Source of the DNA: Callorhinchus milii | Lineage: Eukaryota | Length of the DNA: 64,000 nt | Assembly (NCBI RefSeq): GCF_018977255.1 | Contig: NW_024704755.1 | Location: 7,812,001-7,876,000, forward strand | Direction of reading: 5' to 3' | Part shown: positions 9,401 through 33,620 of the stretch, one piece after another | Layout: each line of letters starts with the position of its first letter | Position numbering within the stretch: position 1 is the first letter of the stretch | The notes under the pieces: model-generated | Told to the model about the DNA's origin: nothing | Seen by the model: only the letters and a program-made list of their open reading frames with translations | Database searches by the model: none | Program-made: the position numbers and the translations under genes

Positions 9401-12400
9401 CGAGGATCTTGAACTCGATCCTCTGGGGGATGGGGAGCCAGTGGAGTCGGACGAGGGTGGGAGTGATGGGGTCACGGAGCCTGGCGCGTGAGAGTACACG
9501 AGCTGCGGAGTTATGGATGACTCATCAGCACCTTACACAAGCAAGGTCCTAAACAACCATGAAGCAAATTTTCAATTTAGGACAGGCACTGGTGTCAGAA
9601 TTAAATAATGTCAATACAAATGTTAAGCTTCCACTCAGTTGCATTATTTACTTTTAAAGCAGCTCAATGTGGATTTATTCCCTATGCACAGATTCACAGC
9701 AGTTTCCTCGAAAAACAGTTTTCTTTTAATGTGCTCAGCTCAGTTTTCCATGAGCGAAACATGTCTCAAGCATTGTTCCAAAACAACTCATCAATGAAAT
9801 CAATTATTTGTCAACAGACTGAACAAAACCATTCTCTGTGCAAAGTGTGAAACTACAAGCACTTCACTTCTCCAGATAATGAATATGAAAGTTATATTTA
9901 ATCAAATACAATTACTATTGTTGCCATATTTTACAAAACAAACACTGGTCAAAACATTTAAGCAATCATTGTCTATAAACTGAGGGACAGCAAGTTTTTG
10001 CCCACATTAATTCAATCAATTCATTGAGGTAATCAAGTAACTGATTTTATGATAGCACTTGGTACAATAACAAAACCTTCATCACAGATGGCATATAAAA
10101 ATAAACTGGTGAATGTCAGGTGAGAAATGGAAAGAATCCCTTGACGAAGTCTGAAACGAGATCACACCCATGATTTTTTTTGCTCCAATTTTTGATCTAC
10201 AGTGATGTGCAGACAATGTGAAACAAGGTAAAAATAGATAATTGCACAGCTTATATAAAAAAGACAATTTAAAAATACATTTAGAAAAATAATTATTTTT
10301 AATACACATTAAATTCAAGCTGAAAAGGGACGTAGGTATACAGGACTAACTTACGCTTTTTCCTGTGCTCTACCAGATCGGAAGCTTGCTTTGCAGAACA
10401 CTTTGCAAACCAGTTGTCACCCAGTAACACAGTGACTTCATTTGTATGCACTAGCTGTCCAGGCATAAATGCAAGTGGACCAAATGGCACCTATCATAAA
10501 AACAAATTAAAACATTTACATCAGGAATTCTATGCTCTGTATACATTTAATTACATTTTGAAAAAATGCACATTTTTTTTACTAGGCTGCAATATGAATA
10601 CTTAATTACAGTAATAATCTGCTTAAAAGAGTCCCATTTTGGTTAATATATCTACCCCTCCCATATCTGGCCAGGTAGAAAAAACAAACCTTTTTAGTAC
10701 CTAGGTTGAAATGTCTCAAATTGCTTCATAAGAATTTACTGTTGAGTATATTTTTGTAGGCAAACACTATAACCGGTGAGGTGAATAACTAATTTACCCA
10801 GATGATTGTTGGCCAGGACAACAGGAAAACCTCCCCTGTCTTTTCAAACAAAGCCGTGGAATATTTAATGTCTATTTGAAAACATGAATGGAACCTCAGT
10901 TTAATAACTCCCAAAACAATATATATTTAAAGAGCGCCTTTCACGTCAGGAGGACATCTTATAGTGCAATGAAAGGCTTAAACCCACTACTTTCCAACTC
11001 AAAATGCTACCAACTAAACCAGCTGACACCTAACCACTTTCATCCTCATATTCAGAATACAAATGCTTGTCATCTTATGGGTGATTCTTCCCTCAAGCCT
11101 GGACTCCATCCACACTGAAACAACCATTCCTGTTTTTCTCTATTTTATCTCCATTACAAAGGTCATTGTTTCTTTGAACTTTTTTTTGTCCGTTCCAAAT
11201 TTCATTTGTGGGGTTACCAATGTTTTTGTTAAACAAATGAATATATAAATAAACAATGTCATAGCATATTTTCAGTCCTGGCAGTTTTCTTAGAGATAGG
11301 AGTTGATTGTGATCTAATTAAATGAGTTTCAGTTTCAATGGTAACTTTTTAACCCCTCTGAACATCTGAAACCAACCTCAGTTAAACTAATGAAACCAAA
11401 ATACCATCAAGTGTTTTAGTTTAATATCCAAAAGTGTCATGTCAATAAAAATTAAGACAGAAGTTGGCAGCTAGAAAGTGACATTATATTTAAATTGTTA
11501 ATAACCAAATAAATGCAATTAAAAACATTTGCACAGAATTCTACACTGTGTGAAACAGTTCAAAATTAAATGCTTAAAAATAACTAATAAAAAATGACAT
11601 TCACTTAAAAGGATGAATGACACTAATACTTTCCTGATCCTGCAAAATAAGGTGGGAGAGAAATGTGCTTTTATTGGAAATATTAGAGCTAGTTGGAGCC
11701 TACTCAACAGTGCCAATATATTAAAACGAATGAGCCACTGTCTGTATTTTGACTTTGTCATAGCTCCATCAATATGTTCGCCAAAAGCTATGAATCAGAC
11801 ATCCTCCAAGATAAAATTCATGGTGGGAGTTTGTAAGACACTGTGTAATCTATATACTCAGTTCCCAGAAACCTAAAAGCTGTTAAGGAAAGTCTGACCA
11901 TATCCGCAAAACTAATAGATTAGCTAGCACACATTCCTGGAGAGGTAACCCTAATATTCTTCAGAGTTTTCAGAAAAAAAGGCATTTCTTCTTGATCTAA
12001 AGATGAAGCCATTATTGTCTCTGAACAAAAGAAGTTCATCTCAGTAACCAATGAGGCATGAGTCAACCGAATTATGGCTTCAATCAGGGATAAAAGTATT
12101 GCTGATTTCTCATTCAATTTGGAGTATCATGTAGACGATTCTAAGCTTTTCAGATTGCTTGTGAGCAACTGTGATGAAGGAAATATAAGGTAGTTTGGCC
12201 ATATTCTGCAATATTATGCACCTACACCTATTATGCATGCAATTACAAGGGCACGTAATTGATAATTCCCTGGAGTGTAACTTACTCACATAAAGAAAGG
12301 CCATTTAGGCAAAGCACCAGAGGGAACCTGTGGAACCAAACTGCCAGCATGTCATCCTTTAGGAAAGGTAGGTAAAATATTTGCACATAGAAACACTCAA

Positions 12401-15400
12401 GCCTCTTCAACACAACGTCATAAGCTGCAGGAAACTCGTATTGTATAATTTCTCAAATCTACCAATGGGAGGAGGGGAAGAAATAAAAAAAATGACAAAA
12501 TTCATACTCACCATAACATCATAGGACAGTTTGTCAGGCAAAGTCTTTAGTCTTTCTTGAAGTGCTTCATAGTCACTCTGCACCTTATTCCTAAGCGGTG
12601 AACAGTTAGTTAAATGTTGGCGATTTTATTTTTAATTGTTCAAACATTTCACAAAATGCATACAAATAAATAATTTTAACAATGTAATCTCTGTATTATT
12701 TGCTTTCAAGAAACACTCAACACTTGCCATTCAATGATAAGACCCAACGAACTAATGTGTTGGTTCATCTGCTTTATAGAATGTAACTATATACTTAAAT
12801 ATATACTCATACTACCTTCACAGAACCTTGAGAGTCTAGGCAACTATTCTAACTTAGTCAACACTGTTATGATGGGATAAACATCTACCGAATGCTCTGC
12901 CACTCAGAAAAGCAAAAAACAATAAAATTCCATTAAAGAATTTACAAGAGCACTCTAGCAATCAAACAGATTGCATTTTAGAAATTAATCAAATTACAAT
13001 TTCAACTTACTATCACTGTCAAAAATCAATTCATAAAAATTAGTTTTTAATTTATGGTTGACAGTGATGATACTGGCCTCACACAACTGACTGCAATCTG
13101 GGAACAAAGGAAGCGATACCAAAAAAAACATCATAGGTTGCAGGCGGTTATCTGTTAAGTGGAAGAGATGATATTTTTCCTGCCACATATTAAATGATGG
13201 ATGTATATAGGGAAATAAACAATGATTATGAAATTTCAGTCGAAAAAAAACTTATAACGGAAGGGAAAGGTTTGATTGTAATCCAGGCTCCTGTACTTGC
13301 TTTGCAGCAATAAGGGCCTACAATATAATTATGATTTGAGCAATAATTTCATTTTATTAAGGGGGGGGGTTATTCCACAAATTATGCTTTCATCAATTCA
13401 CCAAACAAAGATGCTTTGGGGATGATGTTTGCAATATGGCCATTCTTTATTTGTGAAATAGCATGAAGCAGGCTTGATTATTCAGGACTGAGGACTCTAT
13501 AATTGAGATATATCTTATCCTCACCTGATATCCATCCATAACTAGGAACTGGGACATGGACACCGGCTGATTTTCCCCTTTTCCCACTAAACCACTGCCC
13601 CAAATCAAATTTGAAACTGCAACTTGTGGAACATTGATATAAACACTTATGTTCATTTTTGTGTTTTTTAAAAAAGTAATGAAAAGAGACACAAGATTAA
13701 ACACCTTTTTTTCTGAACACAAATGGTTTTGCTGGCTTTACTATTCTCAAAACAAGAAATCAGTCATCAGCAATTACTCCCTTCAGCCCCACTTGCTTGA
13801 AGTCCTCGGTAAAATGAGTTTAGACCAACAAATTCATGCTATTTTGTGCTATTTCTGAGCCCCAAAAGATGGTTACTGTGCAAAGCGGGACACAGACAAC
13901 TAATGCCTCTCGTTTCAGCCTGTTGCTAGAGCACATTGGTAAGATGGAAAATAAATGTACTCAACAACGGGTCACACTAGATCTAGCTTGATAATTATTT
14001 TTCAGTTGAAGGCAAATCATTTGTTTACCATAAAGCCTGCATTACTAATTATCAAATAGAACTAATCATTTTTTCTTCAATAAACTGACAGGAAATAGAA
14101 TTTGATAGAGTAACAATTTGGTACAGTGACCAATTTACGCAAGATTTGTTTTTCAAAATCACTGTTGACTTAGATTAGTTATTCACTTCTTTTTATTGGA
14201 TAAGTGATATCATACAATTTACACAACAGATAAATGTTACCAAAATGTTGCTGCTGAACCTTAAAAACATTATTAATTCTAATATTTAGGATAGGCAGAT
14301 TTACTGGAACATTTGGACTTACCAGTGCTGAATTTTTTCGTTGCAGCTTGAGACTACCTGTTATTAAAATAGACAACTGCTCATGAAAAGCAATGTCGAG
14401 AATTCCAAGTACTGTAAACATGAGTGCAACATACAAAACAATTGTGAAGTAAATTTATCAGAATAACAAAGGCATTTGGAAACAAAGTTACTTTTATATG
14501 GAACAAATTTTGCTTGGTGACATAAAACACTGTATCATACTTGGAAGGCAAAGAAAAAGTCCACATTAAAATCCCCTTTTAACCTCTGTTTGCATCCTTC
14601 ACTTGATTTATAAAAGGGGAGAATGGGAACCTACTAAATCCTCGTTCAATCTATAGATATAAACATCTGTATTCACAGAATCTATCATTTCCTTTACCAA
14701 AATAACATGTTTTTCTTTATATTGCATTTTATAAATCGGTCATGGAAAATATTAAAATACAAACATTTTGTAATCCAAAATATATTCGGAAATCTTCAAG
14801 TTTTGGGGATCAACCAGGTGTCTGATGCATGCAGAAGCCAATTATCATACTTTAAAAATATGTAAACCAGAGAGTTCTATATATGCATGGAAATGCACGG
14901 AAATGCCCATATATTAAGGAAATTGCACTTTCTCTCTTGAATCATCATATAGGGCTAAACATATATCGGACTTCAAACACAAATGAAAGGTCATTTTTGG
15001 ATGAAAAATAAATTCTCACTATGACCTATTTATTAATAAATGTGGTCTTACAGAAGATTGCAGATTCAGAGGACAAACCAATAAAAGTAGTTGAAAACAA
15101 AATAATTACATAATTTATTGCGTTACATAATAGCGTTGCTCGGAATATTTGAATATAGAGGAATCTTGAAATAGACAAAAACAGATAGGTTTATGTATGA
15201 ATCAGAAAAGATTTAATACTATATTGTTCAGCCTTAGCTGGAAATTACTGAAACCAACTGCAATTCTTTTCAAAGCAATGAATATTTACCAACATAAATA
15301 CCTTAAGCAAGATCGTTGAAATCATTCCTACACACTATTGTTGTAAATCTTTGTTGAGGAAACCAAAGATATATGCTTGCAATTTGGTAGGATAAGTACA

Positions 15401-18400
15401 TAATATTCCTGATTGTCATTTGACTTGGTCAAGGTCTCTGGTCAAGGTCACAAATGACATCCTGACCACGTGTGACCAGGGCTCCCTCTGCCTCCTTGTC
15501 CACTCCGTCACTTTTGACACTGTGGACTATTCAATCCTCCTCCACCTCCTCTACTCCCACCTTAACCTCCAATACTCTGTCCTTGTCTGGTTCAGGTCCT
15601 ACATTTCACACCGCCTCCACTTCGTCTCAGCAAACGGCTCTCCTCCTGCCCCGAACTGTGTCTCGTGCGGCGTTCCTCAGGGCTGTCCTCAGTCCCCTCC
15701 TCTTCACCCTCTACATGCTCCCCCTTGGTGACATCATCCACAGACACAGGGTAAATTTCCACATGTATGCGGATGATACCCAACTTTATCTCTCTGCCTC
15801 CATTCTCAACTCCAGGACTACTGGCGTCCTGACAGATTGCCTGTCCAGCATCAAGTCCTGGACAAGGGACAACTTTCTCCAGCTGAACGTCAAGCCTGCA
15901 AGACCGAGGCCCTCCTGCTTGGCTCACACCAGCGCCTCCGCACAGACGCCGGCGGCATCAGCCTCCACGGCTGCACACTCAACCTCACTAAGCCAGTCAG
16001 GAACCTGGGTGTCTTGTTTGACCCTGAACTGTCCTCTCCCCCACATCCGCGCCATGATCGGTACTGCCTACCACCCACCACCTCCGCAACATTGCCAGAC
16101 TCATCATTGCCTCACCCCTCAGACTGCCGAAACCCTTATCCACGCATTCGTCACATCAAGGCTCAATTATGGAAACTCCCTCCTCATCGGTCTTCCCAAC
16201 TCTTCCCTTCACAAGCTGCAGATCATCCAAAACTTTGCAGATCATGTACTCTCGCGCATCAGGCTCTGTGACCACATCACTCCCACCCTCGCCCGACTCC
16301 ACTGGCTCCCCATCCTTCAGAGGCTCGAATTCAAGATCCTCATCCTCACTCTGACCTGCTGACTCTCTACCAACCTGCCTGCTCCCTCCATTCAGCGGGC
16401 TCCGGCCTGCTCCATGCCTCCCACCCGACCTGCCCTACCATCGATGGACGGGCTTTCAGTCTCCCTGCCCCCACTCTGGAACTCCATCCCAGTCCCTTCG
16501 CCTCGCTTCCTCCCTTGCCTCCTTCAAGGCCGGTCTCAAGACCCTCCTCTTCGATCGTGCCTTCAGTTGCCTTCCCACCTCTCTGCCTTTCTTCACCCCT
16601 ACCTCATCCCTCCCCCATGCTCGGGGCCTGACCCCTGACTGTCCAGCGCCTTGGGACATCCTCCCGACGTGAAAGGCGCTCTATAAATGTCATTTTGTTG
16701 TTGACTTATCTAAATAAAACACTATTAATAGATAGTTTTTTTTAACTAAATATTCCCAAAAGAAAACATAGTCATTGGTTTAAATATATTGTATGTGTAA
16801 AGGCCTAAACTATAACATGACCATTTTCAAATTTTCCATAAGTATCCAACCGATAATTTTTCAAATAATTAAAAATGTTTTGTTTTGAAACTAGCCAGAG
16901 GGGCCATAGTGATCTTCTTTGGTGCTGTCCATTCCCATGAATAACACAAATTTGGAAATTATGTAACTTTGTCCATAAACAAGTTTGTATGGAACAGAAT
17001 AACCTTTTCATCTTCAAATTACTGTGCTTGCATGTGTGATTTTTAGTCAATTTCGCATTGTTCTGAAATAGTTGCATGAATGGAAATCTTTTATCAAACC
17101 TAGATTTGTTTCTGAATGGATTTTATGATTTCTTCCCTTTTCCAGTCAAGTTGGCAGACAAGTCATCCGTCCCATATTTCTGCCAATACCTCCATCTCAA
17201 CAGGCACTGAAAGAAGCATAAGAACAACCAGAAACTGCTCGTCTGTTCTCCCTTTCTTGCTATGATGAAGTGGCAATCCAAACATCTTCAGATTAGTCCA
17301 ACAGTATCATTTGCTCAGTCTGATTGCATATTAACACTGGATCTGAACAGGACTATTGCAATTTCTCTAGATTATTTGGGGAAAGGGGGAGAGCTCTTTG
17401 TCACTAAAATCTAAACAAACAAATAAAGTAAATTGGAACATTAGGCTGAAACCAGAATTTTGTTGAGCTTTTTTGCTTCAGAATCAAATACGATTTTAAT
17501 CTGAAGATTTCAATTTAGTATTTCTATGATTAAAGTTCCACCATTAGCCTCTGGGGAGCGCCAATGCACAATGTTTGATATTCTTTAACAATGTTGTGTT
17601 TGCTACTGTAAACCCCACTTATAGAAAACCGACATAGAATTCAATATCTCCCAATCCCTTGGTTTAATATTGTTTTCCATTCATAGCAACTCTCAACTAC
17701 AAGAAACAAGGTGGTCAGATAAAACCAGTGTTTTTTATCCAGTCGACATTTGAAGTTGGTACTAATCCGTACTGCAGGTCGCTGAAAGGAAAGTATATCA
17801 GATTATGAATTGACAATTTTCCAACCAACTGGGAGAGTGTGTGTGTTTGTTGCTGATCCAGGTTTTTCGATATCAGTATCAGTAAATAAAGCTACAAATT
17901 ATATAATTTCTGACCATAGCATCAATTTCCGAGGGATCTAATTACAGTATAAATCACTTCAGTTTACTTCCAGTGAATGCCAGTTCACTTCAGTTTTAAC
18001 TATTACTAAAAAAACACACTTTCTCATAATGGATTTGGGATCTCATGAAAAATGTGTTTCCTAACTGTGCAATTATGACTGCGATAGTGCTCCACTGACA
18101 ACAACATCCAATAATTGAATTGAAGGAGAAACTGTAATGTTAATAACAGATTAGAGGAACTTAACCTCAAGTTTTAAATTGCATTGCTAACACACTTCAT
18201 AGCCACCTAAGCAAAGATAACTGAAGATAAGTCAAAAAATGTATTTTTGTTTAATAAAAAAAACGTTTACACGCTATTCCACACAATTTACCTTACATGT
18301 CATTTCTAAAAAGTGTTGTTTTAACCCGCTTTTAAGATCAAAAATAGACACGGCCTCTGTTGCACTATTGTTGAACTCATTCCATTTAACTGTTAATGCA

Positions 18401-19137
18401 GATTTTTTGATAACGTTAGATATTTAGATGTTATAACGATTTTGTGTGTGTGTGGGGGGGGGGGGGGAGACGGTCCTCTGTTACTCGCTGGAGAGTGGGG
18501 TGGGGGGGGGGGATGACTATCTAATGATTAATGACGGAAATACTAGGAAGGATTTTAAATAAGAACGGGCCCCCGCGGTGTGGGAAGTTCAAAGAGCAAA
18601 CGGGAGTGATCGCAATCCGTGTGTGTGTGTGTGTGTGTGTGTTTTTTGGGGGGTGGGGGGGAAACAACAACTTCTCCGCAGCTCCAATGTCGGAACCACC
18701 TCCACTCTTTGCACATTGGAAGTTTGCTCCTGCGGGAGGGCGGAAAGTTTTGAGGGATTTTAAGGGGCAGGAAGGGGGGGCTCGTGTGCGAGGAAGGAGT
18801 ACGTGCTCAAACGTGGGAGGAGAGGGGGGGGGAGGTGAAGAGGGTAAAGGATGGTGGCGGTGGTGGTGTGTGTGTGGTGTGGGGGGGGGTGTGGGGGTGT
18901 TCCCGACAGGAAAGGGAGACATTAATTAGAACTGGTTCGCGGGGGCTTCCTCGCGGGAAAGCGTTTGAACTGAGGTCGCGCGTCCCAACGGCTCAGCCCT
19001 GCCTTCAAACGCTCGGCCTCGACCCCGTGGTGACTCGGACTCGCCTTTACCTTGCGGTGCTCCTCCCCGAGTCGGGCCACTTGGTGCGAGCGAAGAAGCG
19101 CTTGGCCGGCGCGGGGCCGCTTCTGCGAGTCCGCCAT
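472..19137 (-). CDS. URI1: URI1 (unconventional prefoldin RPB5 interactor), multi-exon, 3' end outside the window
   Basis: Coding exons (minus): 19137-19051 [29 protein letters not shown]; 14357-14323 [12 protein letters not shown]; 12590-12512 [26 protein letters not shown]; 10490-10355 [36 protein letters not shown] (prefoldin alpha domain); 7033-6942; 6199-6124; 5223-5043 ([13 protein letters not shown]); 2244-1962 ([13 protein letters not shown]); 992-844 ([24 protein letters not shown]); 715-472 ([22 protein letters not shown]). All introns are GT-AG with compatible phases, and the gene is syntenic with CCNE1. Confidence 0.96.
8990..9520 (-). mobile_element. 5'-truncated L2-clade LINE 3' fragment with (TTG)n tail
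   Basis: Reverse complement matches the 3' part of 15420-16703 (LHWLPI...EFKIL region; CTCCCGACGTGAAAAGCGCT tail). Confidence 0.85.
15420..16703 (+). mobile_element. L2-clade LINE, RT C-terminal half plus 3'UTR, frameshifted
   Basis: [53 protein letters not shown]; ends in ...GGCGCTCTATAAATGTCATTTTGTTGTTG. Confidence 0.92.
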
Positions 19138-19700
19138 CTCCTCGCGAGCGGCGGGTGCAGTGCGTGTGTGTTTGTCTGTCTGTCTGTCTGTCTGTCTCGA
19201 CCGACTGACTTGTTTTTCCACAACTTTCCCCCTGGGGAGGAGGAGGAGGAGGAGAGGGGGTGGGGGTGGTGAGGGGGGACGACGACGAAAAAAAAACACC
19301 TCAACAACTGCGAGTCCTAAAGAAATGTTTATGGAGGTGTTTCTCACTGCAGCCCCGGAGCTCCTCACTCCTCGTACGCACAGAGGGAGCAGTTGACGTT
19401 GTCATCCAGGCGGTCGGGGCGGAACACATTTCACACTCGCATTATTCCTGCTTCGGCCCCGAACGGTTTAGAATCGAAGCTCAGCTCCGCTCGCTCCTCG
19501 GCACCGCCAACAGCTCCGCGCCATCTTTGCTCTCTCTCTCTGTGTGTGCGCGCGCGTCTGTGTCTGTGCGCGTCGCTGTCGCCGAGCATTCTGGGACGGC
19601 AACACCGGCACCACAACAAGCGGCAGCTCCGGCCTCAGCCACAGCACATGGGGCGGACAGCCTCCACACCCCCACCCCCACCGAGAGTCAGCCTCACCCC
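18930..19700 (-). promoter_or_regulatory. URI1 CpG-island promoter/5'UTR with YY1-type AAGATGGCG motif (~19520-19528)
   Basis: High GC and CpG density around exon 1; CGCCATCTTT on the + strand. Confidence 0.75.
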
Positions 19701-19822
19701 CCCCACCCCGAGAGTCACCCCCCCCCACCCCGAGAGTCAGCCTCCCCCCCCCCCACCCCGAGAGTCAGCCTCACTCCCCCACCCCGAGGGTCAGCCTCCC
19801 CCCCCCCCCCCCACCCGGAGAA
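19670..19822. repeat. C-rich ~20-bp minisatellite (CCCCCCCACCCCGAGAGTCA-like, ~7 copies); mirror copy at ~20405-20560
   Basis: Repeat units read directly from the sequence. Confidence 0.85.
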
Positions 19823-21007
19823 TCACCGTCAGCACAACACCCGTTAGCGTTGCACTTCGAGAGCCCCTGTTTTTTTTTGACAGCCCTTTCCGATCGCCTC
19901 CTGCCAGAATCTTCCCATTTCCCAGCCTTCTCCCATCACAGCCTCAAGTTTTCTTTATATATATAGAGGTTAAACATGAAAATATTTAAAAATACAACAA
20001 CTCTCGCATTTATTTTTATATGCATACATATATATATATATATATATTACCCTTCGTGTAGGGATCGTGTCTTCAGAAAGAGTGCTGCACGAGAGCAGAG
20101 TTGGGTGGTGGGGGGTCAATAAATGAGAGATCACAATTGGAAATAACAGGATCAACCCCTCCTCCTCCTCCTCCCACCATCACCTCCTGTTTAATCGGTT
20201 TAGAGTTGCAAAGAGCAAATTCCAGGATGAGACAGAGATACCCATGACATTTTTCTGGACCAGAAGAGCAAAGAATTGATGACTGGGGGGGGGGGGGAAG
20301 AGGTCAGGACAACTGGACATATTGTTTTTAAAAAAAAGATGCTTTAGGTTGAGCGTGAGAGGAGGGAGGCGGATGTTGTGCTGACGGTGACACTCGGCTA
20401 GAGGGGGGGGTGGGGGGGGGGAGGCTGACTCTCGGGGTGGGGGGGGGTGACTCTCGGGGTGGGGGGGGTGACTCTTGGGGGGGAGGGTGACTCTCGGGGT
20501 GGGGGGGGAGGGTGACTCTCGGGGTGGGGGGGAGGCTGACTCTCGGTGGGGGTGGGGGGGTGGAGGCTGTCCGCCCCATGTGCTGTGGCTGAGGCCGGAG
20601 CTGCCGCTTGTTGTGGTGCCGGTGTTGCCGTCCCAGAATGCTCGGCGACAGCGACGCGCACAGACACAGACGCGCGCGCACACACAGAGAGAGAGAGAGA
20701 GAGAGAGCAAAGATGGCGCGGAGCTGTTGGCGGTGCCGAGGCGCGAAGCTTCGGTTCGGGGCCGCAGCGGGAACAACGCGAGTGCGGAAACGCGTTCCGC
20801 CTCGACCGCCTGGAGCGACGAGGTGAGGCGCTCCCGGGGGCTGCAGCCCTGATAACACACCCACCACAGACATTTCTCGAGGACTCGCCGTGGTCGAGGT
20901 GGTTTTGTTCGTTCGTTCGTTCCTCCCTCTCTCTCTCCTCCTCCTCCTCCTCTCCGCCGGGGGAGACGAGTCAGTCAGAGACACAGACACCCGCCGCTCG
21001 CGAGGAG

Positions 21008-21108
21008 ATGGCGGACTCGCAGGAGCAAACCCCGCGGCGGCCGAAGCGCTTCTCCGCTCGCAGCAAAGTGGCACCGAACTCGGGGACGGAGCACCGCAAA
21101 AGGTAAAA
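21008..21108 (+). pseudogene. Degenerate inverted copy of URI1 coding exon 1
   Basis: ATGGCGGACTCGCAG...GGAGCACCGCAAAAGGTAAAAG aligns to the reverse complement of 19137-19045 with several indels and substitutions. It reads MADSQEQTPRRPKRFSARSKVAPNSGTEHRKR* and keeps a donor-like AG|GTAAA. Confidence 0.8.
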
Positions 21109-23609
21109 GTGGGGACCCCCCCCCCCCCTCGAGTCCCGGAGTTGGCACCCGTCGCCCTTCGAAACGTTTTGGGGCCCAACGATTTGGTGTCCCCAAGAGC
21201 CGCCCGACACTGAAAAGTCTTGCATCGGGATTTTTTTTTTTTTGTCGTACGTTTTGGTTCCGGATTCGCAGATAACGATCGAAACAGTCACCGGTCGGGT
21301 TCTCCCCCCTTTTTTTTTGGTTCCCTTTTAAAAAAAAATCAAGCGTTGACGCGAAACCTATTGGTTGCGCGACTTTCCAGCCATTGAGGAGCGATGTTCG
21401 AAGCGTTGTCACACAAGAGTTCAGGGGAAGGACGAGAAGGCGTTTCGTGAACCAGGCAACTCCCAGACCATTTTTTTCCCAACTTTCCTCTTGGTTGGAG
21501 GGGGGGTGGAGGGGAGGAGGGAATAAATTAGATTAAAGTAGACAGGAATTACAGAAGTCAGAATGATTTGGTCCTCTTTTCTCCTCCTCCCCCGCAAGGC
21601 TGCCACCTCCAGCTCGGTTTCCTCAGTCGAAAAGTGCTAATAGACGTGCAGATTATAAATTTGTGTCCAAGTTGTCGTAGTTTACAGCTTTGTGGGTTTT
21701 TTTTAAAAAAAATGGAATCTAAAGCTAATCCATTACTCGCCAAGTCGTTTAAATCGGTGCTGAATTTAATCAGACACATTTCTTCGGTATTGCTGATAAA
21801 GTGTAAATTGGAGCTACGTTTGTGCTCTCAAATACAAACTTGTCGACAACATAAATTTGATTTAAACCAGTCTCAAATGGCTATTGCTTGTTGAACGGTT
21901 TCATTTTTTCCCCCCCAAATGTGGTGGACATTTTCTGAATACGGATACTAACTTAAAAAGATTGCACTGCCAAAAATGGACACTGCTTAGTTTAATGAAA
22001 CCTCTATGGTGACTCAAAATTAATAACATCACTGTTTAGGCTTTCTAGGTAAATCTTTACAATTCTATTCATTTGCAATTGATTTTTATTTTTCCACAGT
22101 ATCCAAATAGTGCTCCATTTATACATCAAAGAAAGTTGACAGCAATAACAGGATTGTGAAGTTGTTACTTTCTTTACTTATATCCAGCATTTTATTCAAA
22201 TCAGCTGATATATTTTTTAAAAAATCTTTTGCATTCAAAAAGTGAAAAACGTGCCTCCTTTGGCTTAGAATTACTGCAATACCAGTATTTTTTTGGTCAG
22301 TTCAATATGTTGTGGGACATATCTGCCTTGGTGCCTTATCAAATTGGTGGGGGGTCGATTGAAATTTGCAGGTTATGAACAAGACTAATTAATCATTGCA
22401 CATGGTGCTTTGGCTATACATTGGCCCTGTGTATATACATACTGTCTGCCCACTTGGAATTATGATGCCATCTGGAGTGTAGAGGTTTACCAGGAATAGA
22501 ATCTGCTGTTGGAACAGGTGTTCATTGTGAATGAGTGGATGGTCAATGGTGATCATTAGGATTTATGCTTGTACATAAATCAGTCATGTTGCCAAGTGCA
22601 ACATTAAATTTTGCTTTGCTACCACTGTAAGTTCCTGTGCTGTGTCATCTGACATGAGGCTTTAAAACCAGACCAAAAGCAGCTCTTTATATGACACCCC
22701 ACTGCGTCAAGGCCTCCAGCATCTGCTTAAATCTATCTTCTAGTTTCAAAAATGTCCCGACTTTTCTTTCTGCATGGTGTGCATTCTACAATGCACCAAC
22801 GTTGCATTCCATATTTTAATTTAAGACTTCTCCAAAACTTCTTTCACCAGTAATTTGTGTTTTCCTGAACTGTCCCTTGTCAAAAATTCACTTCCACAAT
22901 GGATGTCAAAAAAGCTGCAAAATATACTTAACAAAATCCATATATTTTCCATTGTTTAACTTGACTGATTCATTCACCATGTGTTGGGAACCGTTATGTT
23001 CCTTATACACGTTGAATCAAACATTGTGCGGATAATATTCTCAAAACTTGTTTCACAACTATTCAAATTTACCAAAATGTTGGGGCTTCAGCTCTTGTCC
23101 CAGTTTGTGTTACAAAGATGTGCGTTTATTCTGCATCAAGTAAATAGAATGGCTAACTTGATCTTATTAGTTTTCAACATTGCTTGTTCGGTATCAATTT
23201 ACTGTACTAAGCAGAAATTAATTGCAAGGTCCTTTTATTAAAAAAGACTTTTACTTCTCCATTCCCTTTTTGATTGTTTTCATGCATCTTTTTGCCAGGT
23301 AAGGTTAAGTTGTGATGGCCAAGTTATGCCTAAATAGCACCTGCTACTGTCAGCAAAAGTATTTAACATAACAAAAGCCTTATTGAAAGAACAGCTGCTG
23401 GTGCAGTTTAAGTTGAAAGCCTACAACAGTGTGTCTATGGGGAGAAGCTTTCTCCAAAACTAATGATTTAAAAACCAACTCTTCTGTTCTGCAATTAAAG
23501 TACAAATGTTTAGAAGATAAGATGTGCTCATCACATTTAGCTAACAAGTACAAATTAACCAACTTGGTAAATTACAAAACCATATCAATTTGTATTCTCC
23601 CCCCCTATT

Positions 23610-23890
23610 TTGGTGTCAGCCTGGCTCAGTTGGTAATACTCTCACTTGAGTTAATTTGTAGGCTTATGGCCCACATCAGGACTTTGAACTCAGTCTAGGC
23701 TTACAGTGCTGGGAAGCATTTCCCTCCTCACACTTGGTAAAATCCCCAATTTATTGCTGTGCACAATTGGCTGCTGCGTTTCACCCACAAAATAGTCAAT
23801 TTAATTCACAGTATATTCTGTGAAGCACTATTAAGACCTCTCAAAGATGTGATCAGGTGCTGTATCAAATGCAAGGATTATCATCTTTAC
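23610..23890 (+). mobile_element. Decayed tRNA-headed SINE with L2-type tail
   Basis: TGGCTCAGTTGGTA head; ATTGGCTGCTGCGTTTCACCCACAAAAT body; TGTATCAAATGCAAGGATTAT tail. Related tails at ~6320-6410, ~42020-42150, ~51100-51240, ~53590-53680 and ~61230-61290. Confidence 0.6.
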
Positions 23891-25625
23891 ACTATTAAAC
23901 ATTCTTGGAGTAAGCCAAGCATCCTCAAAATGGTACACAATTCTGCTGAATCTTTAAGCATCCCATTTATCTCCTCTTTCTTCCGCTCCACACAATCTAA
24001 AATGAACAATTCAAGGTAATCAAGACTAACATCCAGATGTTGGCTAAATCTAATAGAAATTTTGCACTTCTATTGACATCTCATTGACTTAATTTGATCA
24101 ATATTCCATTTTGTTTTCAAAAATCAAATTCAAAGGTGTCCTGCATTTTATTGGTTCTTCCCTAAAACAATTCATAATACAATTTGAAGTTACAAAAATC
24201 TATTTCCTTCTTCCATATAGTGTGTAGTCAAGACATCTATTAACTAGGCAAGAAAGTTCACAACACTCAAATCCTCTGGGGAATAATGCCTAATTACATC
24301 ACAACATGTTCCAGCTTAGCAACTGCACAAATCCAGTTACTTGATCTCTCCTACACAGATGGAGTCCAAAAGGCATGCATAAATTCAGAGTAAGAATTAA
24401 ATTTTAACAGCTGCTACGGTGCAATCTGTTTTCAGTACAAAGTTGAATGGAATGTTACCAAGATGCAAGTATTTATTGCAAGGAGTGAATGCGAAAGCCC
24501 TTTAATACATTGAGCAATAAGATGCTTTATTTACAGCAGTTTGAAACTTGCTAGAAAGATTTTGCTTACAATCAAAGGTGAGGGCAAATTTTATAATTCC
24601 AAGTACTCTACAAATAAGAGCACTAGAAGTACAGGAATCAAATGGGTATATAAAATTTAAATCAGATGTTTTATCACAAATGCAAGCAAAGCTAGGTTTC
24701 ACTCTTCATGAGACACTCAAGGCTTGAATATGCTTAGCGCATTTTGAATGAAGATAACTTGATCAAAGATTGACCAAGTCAGCGTTTCTACAAAACGGGT
24801 ACAAAGCAACTTAAGTGAAAATGGATTGGACAGTAAGAGTGGTTGTATTACCTTCAATTTGTGGAGTTTCAGTTGTTAAATGGGGAACAAGGAAGCTTTA
24901 AATAGTGAGTCCATATCATTGAGGCACCAAGGTGAGGTTCTACTGTACTTTCAAGCAATATACAGTACATAGGAGCAAGGCACTCATGGTTGCTTCACTG
25001 TAGTTTGTATGCCCACTATGACAACAAACTTTTTTTAAAAAAAAGATAGATTGTTGAGGTGGAACAAATGAGATTGTACCTCAAATAGAACTTTGAATTA
25101 TCCTTCAGAACACATTATGATCACTCCACTTCCTATGAAAGATAACCAGTTCTATCCATGAACTTAATTTTCAAGCTACCAGTATGTAGAATTCTTAATT
25201 TAGTACCCTGACCATCCTCAAAGATGCGTTACGTCAATAGTAATCATTCAATGGAAATAGATATCTTATCTACAAGGTTAGGACATCAGCTTCTCAAAAC
25301 TAACTTTGTTTACAAACGAAGTCATGTATTGCATATCTTATGAACACTGCAACTGCTCAATGAGTTCTGAATAGGAGAGAGCCATTGTCTGGACATCTGT
25401 AATCCTGACTGTTCTATTCTTCCTACTAGAAAAAAAATGGAGGGAGGGATTACCCACAGAAACTTTGTCAAATGGAATTAGCATACAATCTTGACAATGA
25501 ATTAATTACTTATCACTCACATTCAGCAATTGCAACAAAACCAAGTGCCAAACTTCAATGACAAAATCACAATCCAGATGCACAAATATTTTGTCCTCAG
25601 ACAGCATCTTTATTTAAAATACACA

Positions 25626-25711
25626 TAGCAGCATTTAGGTGACAATTTCATAAACAAGTACTCTGCAACCTTACCATTCATTATACCAAGAGCCACCCTC
25701 CCTTAGCAGCA
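25626..25711 (-). promoter_or_regulatory. Two miR-15/16-family 8mer sites (UGCUGCUA) in the CCNE1 3'UTR, upstream of the AATAAA at ~25610-25615
   Basis: TAGCAGCA on the + strand at 25626-25633 and 25704-25711; CCNE1 is an established miR-15/16 target. Confidence 0.75.
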
Positions 25712-26004
25712 TTCAGAATACTTGGAAAGTATTCCATTTGGTTGGTGTTCTTGGGAAGTTTCACTTTAAGTTTAAAAAAATCAATATTAAAAACAAAGTT
25801 ATACAAGTAATGTGTTTTTTTAAACTGCTGGAATTGAATGACACTACCGCTGCAAGCATCAGATTTCAGGTCATTGTCTGCAGCAACCAAGGGTAGATCA
25901 TTAAGAATAAAGTCCATTTACAGTTCAACATTTGTTGAATTAAGGCTTACAGTCAAAATTCGACTTCCAGGTGTAAAACATTCACCCAATTTGTCTTCCC
26001 ATTC

Positions 26005-29000
26005 CTATTGCAAACGTGCATCAAGGATAGGTTTTTTACTGCTTTGTGGTGGGGTTAAAACACCAGAAGGCACAGGAGAAGTCCTGCTTAGTTCAGATAA
26101 CAAAGCTTGCTTTTCTTGAGCTTTATCCTAGAATAAAGGAATAAAATTAGAAATGCATTATTTCACTTAGGATATTTATTAGTTTTGGTTAGTAACTTCG
26201 TGGATCACTAGACTGTAGTATTAGTGAAGTTTGAAAACTAGAAGACTTCCTGACTGTAAAGCAAAATAGTCATGAATAAGATGACTTGTCCAATGCAATT
26301 CACAATCATAGCATTTGTAGTCAGCTTGGAGTCAATTGCATTGCTTGTGAAACCTCCCTCAGGTGAAGTCAGGGCTCTAGCATTATTAATACCACCTCAA
26401 CCGATTTATACAGACAGATCTTTGAAAGACATTACGTATTAAGTTCATTCTATCGGCCTGTACAGTAAAAGTACTAGAGAGTCCGAACCTTCAGTCGCTA
26501 CTTTAACATTGATTAGTTTAATACATCTACACCCATGTGTGACTCACCAGTAAGAACAGGCTGTTTGAGTGAGTCTGTATATTGTGTACATCTTCCACTG
26601 CTATGTCTTTCAACTTCTTCAGTTTTGTACTTCCCACTTCTCTTAGGGCCATAGCAAATGGAACCATCCATTTCACACATGCTTCTATTTCATTCCATTC
26701 AAAACCTAAATGTCAAATAGTCATTATCTTTCCACTTCTCATAGCACCTTATATTCTAGTATTGGAAACATTCTACCACATGCAATATAATCACATTGAC
26801 TACATTTGCATTTACAAATCTGTCATTACCAATTAATACTGCAGAAAAGCTTCCAGATAGGTAGGCAATGCTATTACATGATGCAGTACTAAGCTACAAT
26901 CTGCTTAAATGTGCCAGGGTACAGCATTAATAACACTTCAATTTGCTTTAGTACCTCTGCGATTCATGGGTGGGGGAAAAAAGTTCCCATTCCCAATCAC
27001 TGGCCAGCAGCCTTGCCCAAATGTATGGGACAGGATTAGACTTTGTACAATGTCTGCTGACTTTCTCTCTCCCATCCCCACATGAATAGCTAAAGCTCAC
27101 ACATTTCTACTCAGCAGTAAGATAGCTTCAGGAATGGAAGACAAAGACAGCCTTCAGAAGTTGTAACTGGTCTATACCTGAGACTTTGCAGATCACTTCA
27201 CATGACGAAAAGTGGTACAAAGCTGAAGCTGCTATTAATCCATATGTAAACTCTAAACACTTGAGATCCAAGATACAGAGATCCAAAAGCTGTTGGGGAA
27301 AAAAATTGGGTTAATTTCAATATCATATATAAAATTAAATTTAAACATGCAAGTAACTGAATTGCACTTGTAAATGTATGAATTTGAACCAATGTTAAAA
27401 ATTTATGTAGCTCCCTTCACCTGGATAATATCTGAGCACTTAACCACATTATATGGGAGCTATATAGAGACCGAGTTGGCTTAACTTGAAAGTGGTACTG
27501 AATAAAGATTACAGCATCAATAAGTAGGATTGTACCATTCTTGCACAACTCAAACACAGTGCTCAGGAATTTGATATGTAGATTCTTTTTTGCAGCTCAT
27601 TAGTTGTGAGCAAAACAGACCATAATAATAGGGCATATTCTGGCACAGTGGTTACTGGATGGGGCACAACAGTTTTTCCTACATTAGGATGTGAGTTTAC
27701 AGTTGTTCAGGCAAGAAGTCATGGAGGATAACAAATAAGGCAGAGGAGAATGGCAATTACACGATCCCCAACAATGCAAATCAAATTGAAGGCCCCTACC
27801 AGCCAATTGAGTTCTCTTTTCTCTCTTCCATGCCCCACAATCACTAAGCAAAAAAAAGCATTACCACCCTTCAAACATTCTCAGGCAGTAGATATGAAAT
27901 CTGTTATCTACTCGTGAGGCAACAACCCATAGATACCCAGTGAAGCATGTCCTAGTTTAGATACTGGAAATATTGGGAGATACAATGAGGTGTAGATGAA
28001 TTCTAACATTTCCCCATAACTATTGATTTGACAAGAAAATGCTCTGCCAAATCTGCAGCTCTACTGATGTGGAAGCTTTAAGACCCCTTCAAGACAAGCC
28101 TGAAACAGGCAATTTGCTGCCAAACCTTCACCAGAGCTGACTTCAACTGGCCAATAAATGCACAACAGCTGGTAAAGATTATGGATCATTCTGCCTCTTG
28201 TCTATTGGTTAATCAGAGTCACGGCCTCAGTAACTATATGAAGTAATTGAAGCAGAAAAGCAAACAAATGCTGTACTAGATTTCAATTCAATGCAGTATT
28301 TAAAGAATAAGCAAATGCAGTGGAATATCTGAAGATATTTACCTCCATTATTTGTACAAATACTTCCTGAGGATATTGTGGTACCAGCACTTCATACATT
28401 TCTTTCAAATATGCAACTTGCATGTAGATGTTCAGCCACGACACAATAGTTATGGGACACAAACTCCATTTCAGAGCCTAGAACAGAATACTGTACTGTT
28501 AATTACTTGCCAACAATATTACCAGTGATCAGATACAGATCATAACTTGCTCTAGGTCTGCTATTCCAGCTTAGTTTCTTTTTCAAACTTAAGTTTGCTT
28601 TATTGGCCAAATTTGTATCTCTTGTATTGGCCACATTAAGGGCAAACCTGGAAACAGTAGTCATACAGTTCAATATGGTACCTTTAGAATAATAAGTTCA
28701 GTGTCAAGGATTTCATCTTCTGTGCAAGCACCATCTGTAACATAGGCAAACTGGTGCAGCTTTGGTGGGTAAATTTCCTGCAACAAAAATGCACAATTAA
28801 GTATACTTCAGTTGCATGAGAAGTGTAAGATAATTAAAGAATCCAGCAGAACCAATCATTCTCCTACCTCCAGTTTTGCAGCGATAAACAAAGCTGAAAT
28901 GCCAATAAGTTGAAGGCGGGTTTTCACAACATTTTGCTGTGTTGCCATAAATCGGTCAAAGAAGTCCTGAGCAAGATAAAGTGTCTCTCGATGTAGTTTA

Positions 29001-29016
29001 TAGACTTCACAAACCT

Positions 29017-29047
<31 letters not shown>

Positions 29048-32000
29048 GAAAGGAAAAAGAATTTTAATTTCTGTAAAAAATCCTACTAGATTTTTTTGGT
29101 TGAGTATAGTACTTGCACTGTATAGATAAGAGGCATCTCAAAGTTAAGTCAATAAGTTTCCCTCCCACCCATATATATTCCACCCAAGCCAAGTAAGAGA
29201 ATAGCTATTTGGGTATCCAAATAGTGGCCATCTGGCACAAATTCTAAACAGCAGCCTGCTCAGTACAAAATGCCAACTACTATGCGAGTGAACAAAGCTT
29301 CTGAATACTACTTACAATTTGGTATAGCGCTTTTCGTATCAGGAAGACATCTTAAAAGCACTTCACAGGATTTAATGTAAAGTGGAAGTGAATAAAAGAA
29401 TTTTATTGGGCGATTGCTCGCCAAGACACCGGGAGAAACTCCCTTCGCTTGAAATGCGTCCACTGGAGGGGTTCAGTTTATAAGACTTGAAATGGCTGGT
29501 CTTCATGGGAGAAGAAGAAAGTGACCAGCTATGTTTAGTCTTATGTAGAAGACTTTTCTTAAAAGAAATGGGTGGAGTATTAGATCAGGATTATCAGTCT
29601 TCCCACTTAAAGCCAGTAGAAATCCATAGTCTGGATTGTAAAATGGTTATCACTACAACAGATTTCTACAAGTATACAAAGATTTTATTTGAGTATTTAC
29701 CTCCATTAGCCAGTCTAGAAGAATAGCCCTCATTTTAGGTTGCAAGAGTGGATGTTTCTGCAAAACATCTTTGTCTCGTAGATATGTTTGATCTTTCTTC
29801 ACAAGATTATTCCAAACTTCATCTCGATTTGCCCAGCTGTTAAAACAAAAGGGCACAGATTAATCATTGAACACAACCAAAAGCAACTGTTCCCAGCCTC
29901 CACTCAGTTTGAGACCTACAACATTGAAGCAAACCCAGTGCATTTTGAGAACAGATGAATGTAGACTTACCCCAATATTGGTAATGGTGAAGCTCTAGTT
30001 GGTGTGACAAAGACATTTTTGAATCTGTACTGCACACAACTGTCAGTATTCAATGTAGCCACACCATCTGGATGTTTTTGGGGTGTTGGAATGAGCCTAC
30101 ATGGACTTGTACAGTTGGGATCAGTATTCCAGCAAGCCTGAAATTAATAAATTGGATACAAGCTGTTTACTACTATATTTGTGGTTTGGGGCAAGAATAA
30201 GAATGAAAAATGCACTTGTGTCTAACTCCCCCCATATTTTCATAAAGCTTACTACTTTGGTAAACTTGAAATGGCAACATGGGACAGAGAGAACATTTCA
30301 CCCACTCCCTGGGATTGTTACCCTCAAGAAATCCCACTGGAGGAAAAAAAACACGTCAAGTGATTATTTAGGGCAAGGCAGTAACCCAACTATTCAAGAG
30401 GGAACTCTGCAACCAGAATTCTCTGCATCTTGTCAACCTCCCTCATTTATATTCTCAATCATTTCTCCACTCATCCACCAATGCAGGAACATTTTCTTAA
30501 TTGCAGCCATGCTTGACCTCCAATTTATTTCCACCAATAGCTAATTCTACTATCCTCAGTCACCTGCAGTGCATTTTAGGACTCCACCCTCCACCCCCTC
30601 TTCATATCCATGCTTCCCATTGATGACATCTGCAAACATGGGAGTTAATTTCCACGTTACACAAAATGACACCCAAAACTACCTTTCTTCCTCCCTGGAT
30701 TCCTTGACATTCTGACTTCCTGTCTCAGAATTAAGCCTCACTGTTTTTCAGTTAATGGATAATCCAAAGCCATCTTCCATAACTCCTGCCAACATCTTCA
30801 TGCTCTGAATTCAACTTACTCAATCTTTCCAACTCAATGAACCTTCAGTTCAAACCCTAATGACTAATCTTCACCATCTACTTCTCACCTGTACTAAATG
30901 CTACATGCCCATCACCCTCACCAACCAATGTTGAAGGTTCTCACCCATAAATCCCTTCATACCTTTGTACCTTCCAATTTCTGATCTTCTGTTAGCTCTA
31001 TCTACTCAACTAGGTCTCTCTCCTGCATGTGTACACTATGAATGGGAAGGTCCCGGGGAGTGAGTAAGTAGGGTTCCCTTGCTGCTGAGGTGGCTCCACA
31101 GCAACATACTGGCCAACAGAATATCTGATTGACTCAACCCTCTCTGGTGGTCTCAATAATCCAGGTCCTGAGTGAGGTGGGTCTGACATCAAACCTTTTA
31201 AATGCTGAAAACCCACCACACTCAGGACTTGAATTATTGAGACCACCAGAGAGGGTTGAGTCGATCTGACATTCTGTTGGCCAATTTGGCTCAATTTTAG
31301 GAACTGGAGGGACAGATCAGTCACAGGGATTCTTCCCACTCAGCTCCTAATGGGGCCTTTAAGCCAAGGCCCCATTAGGTAAGATAGCCCAAGTTGCACT
31401 CATTCATAAATTGTGAGATTTTAGCTGGTTAAATAGCACTATCCCAACATGTTAAGGTCCCCAAGCTTGGCTCTTGTCAACCAGTGCCAAATGCTCTCAG
31501 AACTAGATAAGCATGGTGTGTCTCTTCAGGGAGAGTGCACATTTCTACTGCAGACACAGGGAAATGTGGGAACTGACTGATTTAGAAACTTAAAGAAACA
31601 TAAAGCACAGTGGTTTCCACATGGGTCGGACATCCATCTTGCCAAACTATGATGAAACCCATCAATATTGCAAACATTATATTATATCAACATTTGCAAT
31701 TTTGATACCCAGTTAACCAACTCCACATTTTCAAAAAATATCTTGATTGAGTTACAGAAAGTGAAGTTACCTGTGTGTCGAATGTTTTCTTTGTTTGCGC
31801 TTCTGTAACTTCATCAAAGTCCTGTAAACACTTGGGATAGAATATATTTATTACTAAATCTAGTATTGGAGTAGTAGGAAAAATAGTATGTGGGGGGAGA
31901 GGGGGGGGGGGAAGGGAGAGGGGGGGAGAAGAGAAGAGACAAACTCACAATGGCTACATCTGCTTTTCGCTTTCTGGATCGTAATAGTAGCCCTTTATTT

Positions 32001-32178
32001 TCTTCAGTCTTTGCTGCCTTATCTTCTATCCTCTCACTGGAAAAAAAAGTTTTAAAAAAACGTGCAAATATTACACTGGAGGCATTAGGCCTGAAGTGGG
32101 CATTGCCATGAACCCGCACAGGACCGAGTCTGAGGGGAAATAAATCAAATGTTGTTGTAATTACCTTTTCCTCGGCAT
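26005..32178 (-). CDS. CCNE1: Cyclin E1, complete multi-exon CDS
   Basis: Coding exons (minus): 32178-32165 (MPRK), 32036-31949 ([11 protein letters not shown]), 31830-31771, 30137-29971 (LIPTP...SPLPIL), 29836-29701 ([11 protein letters not shown]), 29014-28868 ([23 protein letters not shown]), 28777-28682 ([18 protein letters not shown]), 28477-28343, 27289-27178, 26705-26548, 26127-26005 ([15 protein letters not shown]7 degron, stop TAG). Position next to URI1 and C19orf12 indicates E1 rather than E2. Confidence 0.96.
30590..30980 (+). mobile_element. Highly decayed L2 fragment in a CCNE1 intron
   Basis: Residual similarity (GTTAATTTCCAC...ATGACACCCAA) to the younger L2 copies. Confidence 0.5.
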
Positions 32179-32239
32179 CTCGTTGAGAGTAAATCTAACT
32201 GAAGGCGCCCTGTGATGGAGAGAAGATAAATTTGGGTTC

Positions 32240-33620
32240 GCTGTGAATGTCGCCCTCAGAGGGTCGGGGCGCGGGCTGCTGAGCGCGGGACGGGAACCGG
32301 ACGACTCCTGGGGCCCAGTCACGTTATCGTTAATGCCCGCGATAATCCCGGACCCTCCCCGGCGCTTCCCTCTCACAAAGGGGCTAATCCAGTGGGTACC
32401 CCACTCGGTCCGGGCCGTCTTTTACCGCGAAAAAAAACCCCACAGCGCACACACACACACACAGAACAGACAGACACACACACACACACCAGCGTCTCTC
32501 TTTTCCCGCTCGGATCGCAGCCCGAAAGAAGCCGAAGCCGGGATCGGGTCAACCCGGGATGGGGGGTGGTGGGGGGGTCGCTTTCATCCCATCACAAATC
32601 ACCCATCACAGGTCGCGCGACCCCTTCGGGGAGAGACTTACCGGGAGACCTCTCTCCGGGGGCGGCGAGTGATGACAAGGAGGGGGCGGCCGAGAGACAG
32701 GGGCGGCCGGGGGTGGTGTCGAGGAGAGGGAAAGCCACCCTGAGTGTGTGGGAGGGTGGGTGAGGGGGGAGAAGGAGGCGGCGGGACGTGTGCAGGTACG
32801 CGGGATCGCTCTCTTTCCCCGCTCGGTGCTGCCGCTTCTTTATAAACGCCACCCGGCTCGACCCCTGTGCGCCTGCGCCACGGCTTTAAACAGCTGGCGG
32901 CATGGACAGAGTCCAAGCGCGTGGCCCCGCCCATACCCAGTAGCCCCGCCCATACCAGGGCCCGAGCTCACCGCGCATGTCCCCCGCCACGGCCCGAGCG
33001 CACTGCGCATGCCCCCCGCCCCGGCCCGAGCGCACTGCGCATGCCCCCCGCCACGGCCCGAGCGCACTGCGCATGCTTCCCCCCGCCCGCCGTGGCCCGA
33101 GCTCACTGCGCATGCCCCCCGCCAAGTCTGGCCTCTGGGGTCTGCGGGACGAGGGAGGAGCCGCGATCGGGCGCGCAATTGTCGGCCGTTCACTACTTCC
33201 CCGGGATGTAAACAAGAGCTGGGCCGGAGCTCGCGAACCCCCGTCCCGGGGTCCGATCTCTGGTCCCTGGCTCCGCGCGGGCCTTGATACCATCTCACGC
33301 TAACCACAGACACTGATGGGTGGGGGTGTGGTGTGGGAAACTCTGCCGCCACTCGCGGCCTACGGTCAGGCCCCGGGGGAGGCGGCTCCGGTTGATCAAT
33401 AATCGTCAGAAATTTGGCGCCGAGTATTTCCTCCCTCCCTCCCTCCCCCGCCCCCCACACCGCGCGCGAAAAAAAAACTGAGGCCTACGGCGGGGATCCG
33501 ACAGTGAAGCCATGGGGTTGGCGCAGCTCTCGAGTCGCGTGAGATGTGCAGTGATCGGGATGGTTCATGTCAAGGCCCTGCCTGGTGAGCGCGGCCTCGG
33601 GACCACGGCCCCCAGTACCC
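32240..33620. promoter_or_regulatory. CCNE1/BtpA-like bidirectional CpG-island promoter; probable CCNE1 non-coding exon 1 ending at 32642
   Basis: TATA-like TTTATAAA at 32839-32846; minus-strand donor CGG|GTAAGT at 32642/32641; E2F-type sites TTTCCCGC (32502-32509), TTTGGCGC (33413-33420) and GCGCGAAA (~33464-33471); divergent ATGs at 32178 and 33512. Confidence 0.8.
32959..33124. repeat. Five tandem ~32-bp units GGCCCGAGCGCACTGCGCATGCCCCCCGCCAC
   Basis: Units read directly; each has an NRF1-like TGCGCATG and a GC box. Confidence 0.9.

Follow-up and report, generated by a model that had tools for sequence, protein, structure and literature searches.

A putative inverted duplication of the URI1 promoter and first exon in Callorhinchus milii

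The head-to-head paralogues SIGLEC11 and SIGLEC16 share a 5' block, upstream sequence included, that has been homogenised to 97-99% identity (PMC5701461). Here we describe a related arrangement in 64,000 nucleotides (nt) of Callorhinchus milii DNA (assembly GCF_018977255.1, contig NW_024704755.1, positions 7,812,001 to 7,876,000; hereafter the window), in which the promoter and first exon of URI1 face an inverted copy of themselves across a short spacer. As in the SIGLEC pair, where the account describes a non-functional allele that can be the donor, an apparently converted block lies beside a more diverged one. The SIGLEC genes, however, are whole genes ~9 kb apart with converted coding exons, whereas here a promoter and exon 1 lie 0.5 kb from their copy and the high identity is confined to the promoter (PMC5701461). 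GSTT2 and GSTT2B are likewise inverted duplicates with CpG-island promoters, and conversion is described as having spread a promoter mutation between them (PMC3375281), but that duplication is young, spans whole genes over 29 kb and is 99.4% alike in humans, whereas the present one covers 0.8 kb, is partial and is strongly stratified in identity. Divergent gene pairs in Caenorhabditis also form palindromes with short unique spacers, and their upstream arms, >95% alike within species, are described as actively maintained (PMC1803023). Those pairs consist of two complete genes in three species, unlike the present locus, where one partner is a broken first exon in one species.

Two further systems bear on how such a locus might arise. 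At staggered-break inversion breakpoints in Drosophila, single-copy DNA becomes duplicated in inverted orientation on both sides, sometimes with partial-gene novelties (PMC3355041), although the inversions concerned are large and the candidate inverted segment here is 526 nt. In the account of divergent long non-coding RNA birth through the axis of U1 sites and polyadenylation signals, a U1 site that follows a start facing upstream, together with few poly(A) signals, would stabilise antisense RNA, as might be the case here (PMC6172195); that model assumes gradual motif gain, whereas a duplication would have delivered promoter and donor together. Ordinary bidirectional promoters are one common promoter region, not sequence copies. 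The locus resembles known converted inverted pairs, but only the promoter, first exon and splice donor are copied, and it is not a two-gene pair. Among titles and abstracts of the open-access literature, no report was found of this locus or of an inverted promoter-plus-first-exon layout. We read it as a real, local inverted duplication, specific to the holocephalan lineage, with a conversion-homogenised promoter, the right copy of which would fire outward as non-coding RNA, and assign this reading as a whole a probability of about 0.5.

A self-BLAST of the window aligns 19046-19843 with 21107-20370 in inverted orientation at 75.4% identity over 845 columns (E 5e-169). The two paralogous arms, of 798 and 738 nt, are in divergent orientation around a 526-nt spacer. 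This bears out the palindrome proposed in an earlier sequence-only reading, which had estimated arms of ~800 and ~740 bp around a ~525-bp unique spacer with (TA)n. The arms and spacer are as follows.
19046..19843, minus strand: left arm, with the authentic URI1 promoter, 5' untranslated region (5'UTR), coding part of exon 1 and first 5 nt of the splice donor
19844..20369, no strand: spacer, unique and AT-richer (GC 43%, observed/expected CpG (CpG o/e) 0.42)
19956-19965 and 20028-20047: (TA)n runs in the spacer
20118 (plus strand) and 20014 (minus strand): AATAAA in the spacer, one on each strand
20370..21107, plus strand: right arm, an inverted copy of the promoter, 5'UTR, exon 1 and donor

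The window contains zero N. The spacer lacks internal symmetry (score 33, against a shuffle mean of 29 and maximum of 51), and its only other match within the window is a 35-nt TA-rich patch. Self-BLAST found no further copies of the arms elsewhere in the 64 kb. A transposon with terminal inverted repeats, such as a miniature inverted-repeat transposable element (MITE) or foldback element, was rejected because the arms consist of URI1 sequence and neither they nor the spacer recur in this interval.

Several lines of evidence identify the left arm as the genuine promoter and exon 1 of URI1. The exon at 1959-2240 (minus strand) matches the C. milii URI1 of UniRef at 100% identity, its sole hit among 71 candidates, and the remaining URI1 exons map leftward of the left arm on the minus strand. 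The left exon-1 peptide aligns gap-free (18/33, four residues past the exon included) to the N-termini of Heterodontus and Pristiophorus URI1. This colinearity, with the other exons leftward on the same strand, upholds the URI1 assignment made previously, and the joining of exon 2 to the left exon 1 marks the left arm as the functional one.
19051..19137, minus strand: coding part of URI1 exon 1, 29 codons, with a phase-0 donor at 19050, joining exon 2 in frame
14323..14357, minus strand: URI1 exon 2, the only candidate to pass the filter, matching shark URI1 after the exon-1 lysine
The UniRef entry A0A4W3J5Z3 (C. milii URI1) begins inside exon 3 and lacks exons 1 and 2, both of which are present in the window.

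Identity between the arms is distributed in strata, for which the following segments were delimited.
19667..19812, minus strand: left minisatellite, G-rich, 6 units, with G-quadruplex-type motifs
20407..20562, plus strand: right minisatellite, 7 units, with unit types in a different order
19491..19704, minus strand: left proximal/core promoter, with a GC box (19651-19656), a ZNF143/Staf-like site (19597-19580), (GA)n and a YY1-like motif (19527-19519)
20526..20746, plus strand: right promoter core, with a GC box (20571-20576), a ZNF143-like site (20630-20647) and a YY1-like motif (20710-20718)
19138..19490, minus strand: left URI1 5'UTR, differing from the right copy by 29-36 substitutions and 15-22 indel events, depending on the parameter set
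20747..21007, plus strand: right copy of the 5'UTR, shorter by 92 nt than that of the left arm and retaining CpG at 6-7 sites where the left has TpG or CpA

Counts from the first of four alignment parameter sets, read from the centre outward, give 127/135 identical positions (93-94%) in the minisatellite, 209/211 aligned columns in the core (19491-19704), 222/251 in the 5'UTR, where the right copy has lost 102 nt in 15 deletion events and gained sequence in 7 insertion events, and 86/92 in the coding stratum. The core includes a run of 140 consecutive aligned columns free of substitutions, bases between the motifs included. A repeat finder recovered a 175-nt block at 98% identity (19530-19704 and 20523-20697) with an adjoining 51-nt block, also at 98%. 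The near-identical core previously described as an inner segment of ~170 bp was recovered, yet the block is ~215 nt long and is not innermost, as a minisatellite of ~140 nt lies further inside.

The step in identity at 19491/20746 is sharp, and the core is far closer than the outer arm (core versus 5'UTR, p 2e-6, Fisher test). Such a core had been attributed to either gene conversion or selection. If the duplication is real, arm-to-arm gene conversion probably homogenised the core and is the best explanation, because 99% identity over ~215 nt, non-motif bases included, would be hard to reach by selection alone.

Only two YY1-like motifs occur in the window, one in each core; the consensus sequences applied for YY1 and the GC box are the standard ones. 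Judging from the core motifs, transcription would start near 19530-19545 (minus strand) and ~20700 (plus strand); starts at ~19535 and ~20700 would lie ~1.2 kb apart, against about 1 kb in the criterion for bidirectional promoters. Sites following the ZNF143/Staf rule of CCCR at positions 3-6 and C at position 12 (PMC3082894) number seven in the window, two of which are those of the cores.

Folded as single-stranded DNA, the inner 1.28 kb forms one long stem of -550 kcal/mol (a value without shuffle control). A cruciform, which the sequence-only reading had suggested, is unlikely to form in duplex DNA because the spacer is 526 nt long; for inverted repeats in yeast, a steep drop in breakage and fork arrest is described beyond a spacer of ~8 bp (PMC8053094). 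Local extrusion could be expected only of the (TA)10 run. Stem-loops in single-stranded DNA, perhaps aided by the G-quadruplex-type minisatellites near the inner ends of the arms, would be a likelier substrate for conversion. The same reading had also proposed double-stranded RNA. Two outward RNAs would carry the same sense and could not pair with each other; a hairpin could come only from a transcript crossing both arms, and hence the spacer with its AATAAA on each strand.

The exon-1 copy in the right arm is frameshifted by insertions alone, and homology between the arms ends at its splice donor, two points that the sequence-only reading had missed.
21008..21102, plus strand: coding copy of URI1 exon 1, frameshifted; it is 95 nt long where the left arm has 87 and differs by 6 substitutions and 7 insertion events, with 0 deletions
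21103..21108, plus strand: retained 5' splice site GTAAAA, where homology between the arms stops, 5 nt into the donor

Since the left frame aligns gap-free to shark URI1, the insertions belong to the right lineage. Comparison of the right flank (21109-26000) with the left (12501-19044) revealed no homology past the donor by BLAST (best E 0.26) or by global alignment (z -0.9 to +0.7); among local tests, 1/16 reached p 0.03 and nothing was significant. Simulated intron copies carrying as much as 25% substitutions plus 10% indels were detected in 300/300 trials, with power fading at 30-35%. The boundary may be either a breakpoint at the donor or the edge of an exon copy that constraint or renewed conversion preserved as the intron disappeared. 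Two complete genes, as in the inverted pairs cited above, were rejected because homology is absent beyond the donor up to 26000 and the exon-1 copy is frameshifted. The right-arm ATG frame is open to the donor, which is uninformative as protein evidence since all three frames of the left exon are also stop-free. A phmmer search of the 32-residue right-arm peptide against 1.84 billion representatives returned one match (E 1e-5), without an aligned stretch, and a profile search with the other five right-arm frames gave 0 matches among the 8000 candidates scored, a test of low power that is not evidence for an artefact.

In C. milii URI1, the residue five positions before the end of exon 1 (codon 19066-19068, minus strand) is Gly, and the right copy has the same Gly codon. 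Seventy of 110 named vertebrate URI1 homologues reached far enough upstream for comparison, and these have Arg in 65/70 and Gly in 0/70. The shared codon implies that the copy post-dates a change in this lineage, or that the arms were homogenised after that change. The Gly codon of URI1 may itself stem from a lineage change, from conversion by the right copy or from a consensus error.

In the origin that we propose, either template switching or a micro-inversion of the spacer by staggered breaks, both of which fit the layout, would have set a reversed copy of the proximal promoter, 5'UTR, exon 1 and donor of URI1 526 nt upstream of the original. Frameshifts would then have eroded the coding copy, while the promoter core was repeatedly re-homogenised by arm-to-arm conversion, probably via single-stranded stem-loops in replication or repair, and a single evolving promoter sequence would thereby serve URI1 and its copy alike. 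From the right promoter, transcription most likely runs outward and, with the copied U1 site, would yield a non-coding RNA directed towards the 3' end of a cyclin E-type gene, which by synteny we take to be CCNE1. The 3' end of that gene, with AATAAA at 25614, points towards the right arm across 4.5 kb.

If the duplication is real, outward transcription from the right promoter, which the sequence-only reading had proposed, is somewhat favoured, a judgement that draws on base composition and motifs. High CpG o/e reflects long freedom from germline methylation in vertebrates, and the right outer arm has a ratio of 1.13 and the ~400 nt after it one of 1.10, compared with 0.42 in the spacer and 0.18 in the background.
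21108..21500, no strand: unique CpG-rich flank, with a CCAAT-like motif at 21366 (minus strand) and an E2F-like motif at 21356 (minus strand); an AATAAA at 21522 (plus strand) lies just beyond
The CCAAT-like and E2F-like motifs, called with standard consensus sequences, form a block at 21340-21370, outside the right arm, which could be a separate or ancestral promoter element.

Within the right core, the GC-box, ZNF143-like and YY1-like motifs are intact, and the donor is kept. The plus strand is skewed towards T over A across 21108-24000 (-0.079, binomial p 0.001 for an interval picked after viewing), a skew that is matched in extremity by 1 of 245 overlapping windows and reverses under the cyclin 3' end; the region upstream of the cyclin promoter is nearly as T-over-A skewed, and URI1 intron 1 is unskewed. 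AATAAA is absent from the plus strand of 21560-25600 (0, p 0.015) and occurs eight times on the minus strand, with shuffle means of 4.4 and 3.8, respectively; the minus-strand excess may serve cyclin termination. An Rfam search of the whole window gave one match, which is tRNA-like (34307-34373), and none near the palindrome.

The most serious rival accepts a real, converted duplication but regards the right copy as a functionless passenger, giving at most unstable RNA and CpG-rich by virtue of the neighbouring URI1 island. We consider this unlikely, though better placed than the other rivals, and several observations that weigh against outward transcription speak for it. No firm second exon was found: plus-strand acceptor candidates at 22188, 23620, 24221 and 25430, and one picked by eye at 22100, led to short peptides only. 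Nor did any database protein show an aligned stretch with the right-arm peptide. The AATAAA at 21522 lies on the plus strand only 420 nt past the donor. U1-like sites number 10 versus 7 in a per-site count (p 0.21); an apparent asymmetry of 10 versus 2 was discarded, as overlapping patterns could count one site repeatedly and the difference was lost in the per-site count. The motifs, moreover, could be intact merely because conversion copies them. On the other side, the CpG-rich zone reaches ~400 nt past the copy and is cut off from the left island by the CpG-poor spacer, the plus strand is depleted of AATAAA over 4 kb, and the donor is preserved exactly at the homology end.

A bolder form of our reading, a 'twin promoter', holds that one local event, by setting down a reversed copy of the promoter, first exon and U1 site of a housekeeping gene, at once gave a stable divergent non-coding gene pointing to the CCNE1 3' end; conversion would since have locked the two promoters together, with insertions setting the exon copy apart, and may have leaked into URI1 as the Arg-to-Gly change. 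We regard it as a tentative possibility, on a footing slightly lower than that of the passenger.

All of this presupposes that the inverted duplication is genomically real, which on the pattern of differences between the arms is very probable. The competing view, that of an assembly artefact, would invoke a long read that was chimeric or folded back, a gap fill left unpolished, or else a real copy in which consensus error accounts for part of the right-arm divergence; we judge it improbable. A fold-back chimera from a missed adapter would have little or no unique sequence at its centre, and its arms would differ as read errors do, by single-base indels free of transition or CpG bias; the 526-nt unique spacer speaks against a plain event of this kind. 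Among the 5'UTR substitutions, 16/29 are transitions. The 6-7 CpG-type differences are all CpG on the right and TpG or CpA on the left, with none reversed, where 1.3-2.5 would be expected (p 1e-4 to 0.03). The largest 5'UTR deletion is 25 nt, and long-read-error simulations of the 5'UTR produced a deletion of at least 9 nt or 16 transitions in 0/400 runs under each of three assumed models. Block deletions, CpG-type transitions and unequal minisatellite unit counts fit raw long-read error poorly, so the duplication is likely real. Past the right arm, unique CpG-rich DNA and the cyclin gene follow in the expected order, and no comparable mirror copy accompanies the CpG islands of 32-34 kb and 50-51 kb. 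A plain raw-read foldback, against which the sequence-only reading had cited the spacer and the substitutions, is accordingly unlikely.

The coding copy is the part of the right arm that speaks for an artefact. Its tally of 7 insertions and 6 substitutions with 0 deletions would be unusual for neutral decay and partly resembles continuous long read (CLR) error; an insertion-only pattern appeared in 0.5%, 6% and 14% of simulations under the three models. Five non-independent repeat pairs in the window show 25 indel events per 270 substitutions, far from this pattern. We did not rely on the transition test there, as 4 transitions were observed and the simulation threshold had been set at 5. The UniRef C. 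milii URI1, which lacks exons 1 and 2, provides no independent sequence across the site. The sequence probably belongs to the assembly IMCB_Cmil_1.0, built from PacBio CLR reads with FALCON, Quiver and Pilon, followed last by PBJelly gap filling with corrected reads, and the available part of its description does not mention polishing after PBJelly (PMC8302630, PMC12952989). A partial consensus error inside a real right arm is possible.

Should the duplication be real and active, purifying selection on both promoters could replace conversion as the force that kept the core, an alternative to which we give a little less weight than to an artefact. In its favour, the conserved block matches the extent of the stretch that carries the motifs, from about -170 to +40 relative to the inferred start. 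However, the substitution-free run of 140 columns extends through bases between the motifs, and the minisatellite inside the core, too, is 93-94% alike. Least likely is a two-step origin, in which an RNA-templated exon-1 copy was inserted first and one-sided repair later copied the promoter beside it: the end of homology 5 nt into the intron, where an intron copy would have shown in every simulation at up to 25% substitutions and 10% indels, and the abrupt step at 19491/20746 would suit it, but five intronic bases are present, two rare events are required, and homology would end at the same point if a longer intron copy had been lost, or if the exon had been constrained and the intron had diverged by more than ~30-35%.

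Elsewhere in the window, the gene neighbourhood is that of a cyclin gene and two tandem copies of C19orf12 (52739-53899 and 56946-58487, plus strand; 70-84% alike in DNA), and the order C19orf12, CCNE1, URI1 agrees with the usual vertebrate order.
25609..33400, minus strand: cyclin E-type gene, 5' limit approximate, with a Cyclin_N match (E 7e-16) in the exon at 28868-29014
Within the cyclin gene, its CpG island holds a tandem repeat of 32 nt in ~5 copies (32955-33124), each with a GCGCATGC-type, NRF1-like motif. A 30-nt G run at 29017-29046 forms the polypyrimidine tract of a cyclin acceptor and is a possible homopolymer over-call, and an intron contains a self-complementary, MITE-like element (31110-31283, 174 nt, 84%). 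The tRNA-like Rfam match (minus strand, 33.5 bits) abuts a repeat resembling a long interspersed nuclear element (LINE) at 34365-35292, which recurs at 15810-16703, 8995-9520 and 40274-40572. The LINE-like copy at 15.5-16.4 kb has a reverse-transcriptase fragment (RVT_1, 15466-16359), the only match (1/13) in a Pfam search of both exon-1 peptides and 11 other open reading frames. An inverted pair of 41 nt and 93% identity (55604-55644 and 55886-55926) is based on (CA)n/(TG)n, with its members 240 nt apart.

If the duplication is an artefact, it is only a warning about a reference assembly that is widely used as a slow-evolving vertebrate outgroup, and if it is real but inert, it represents a minor lineage-specific rearrangement. 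If it is both real and active, the locus would show, in compact natural form, how a divergent non-coding gene can be born when a promoter and first exon are copied. It would also provide an example of conversion tracts that halt at the boundary between promoter and UTR, making the shares of conversion and selection directly testable in a 2-kb palindrome, and it could show whether a copied U1 site suffices to stabilise antisense RNA.

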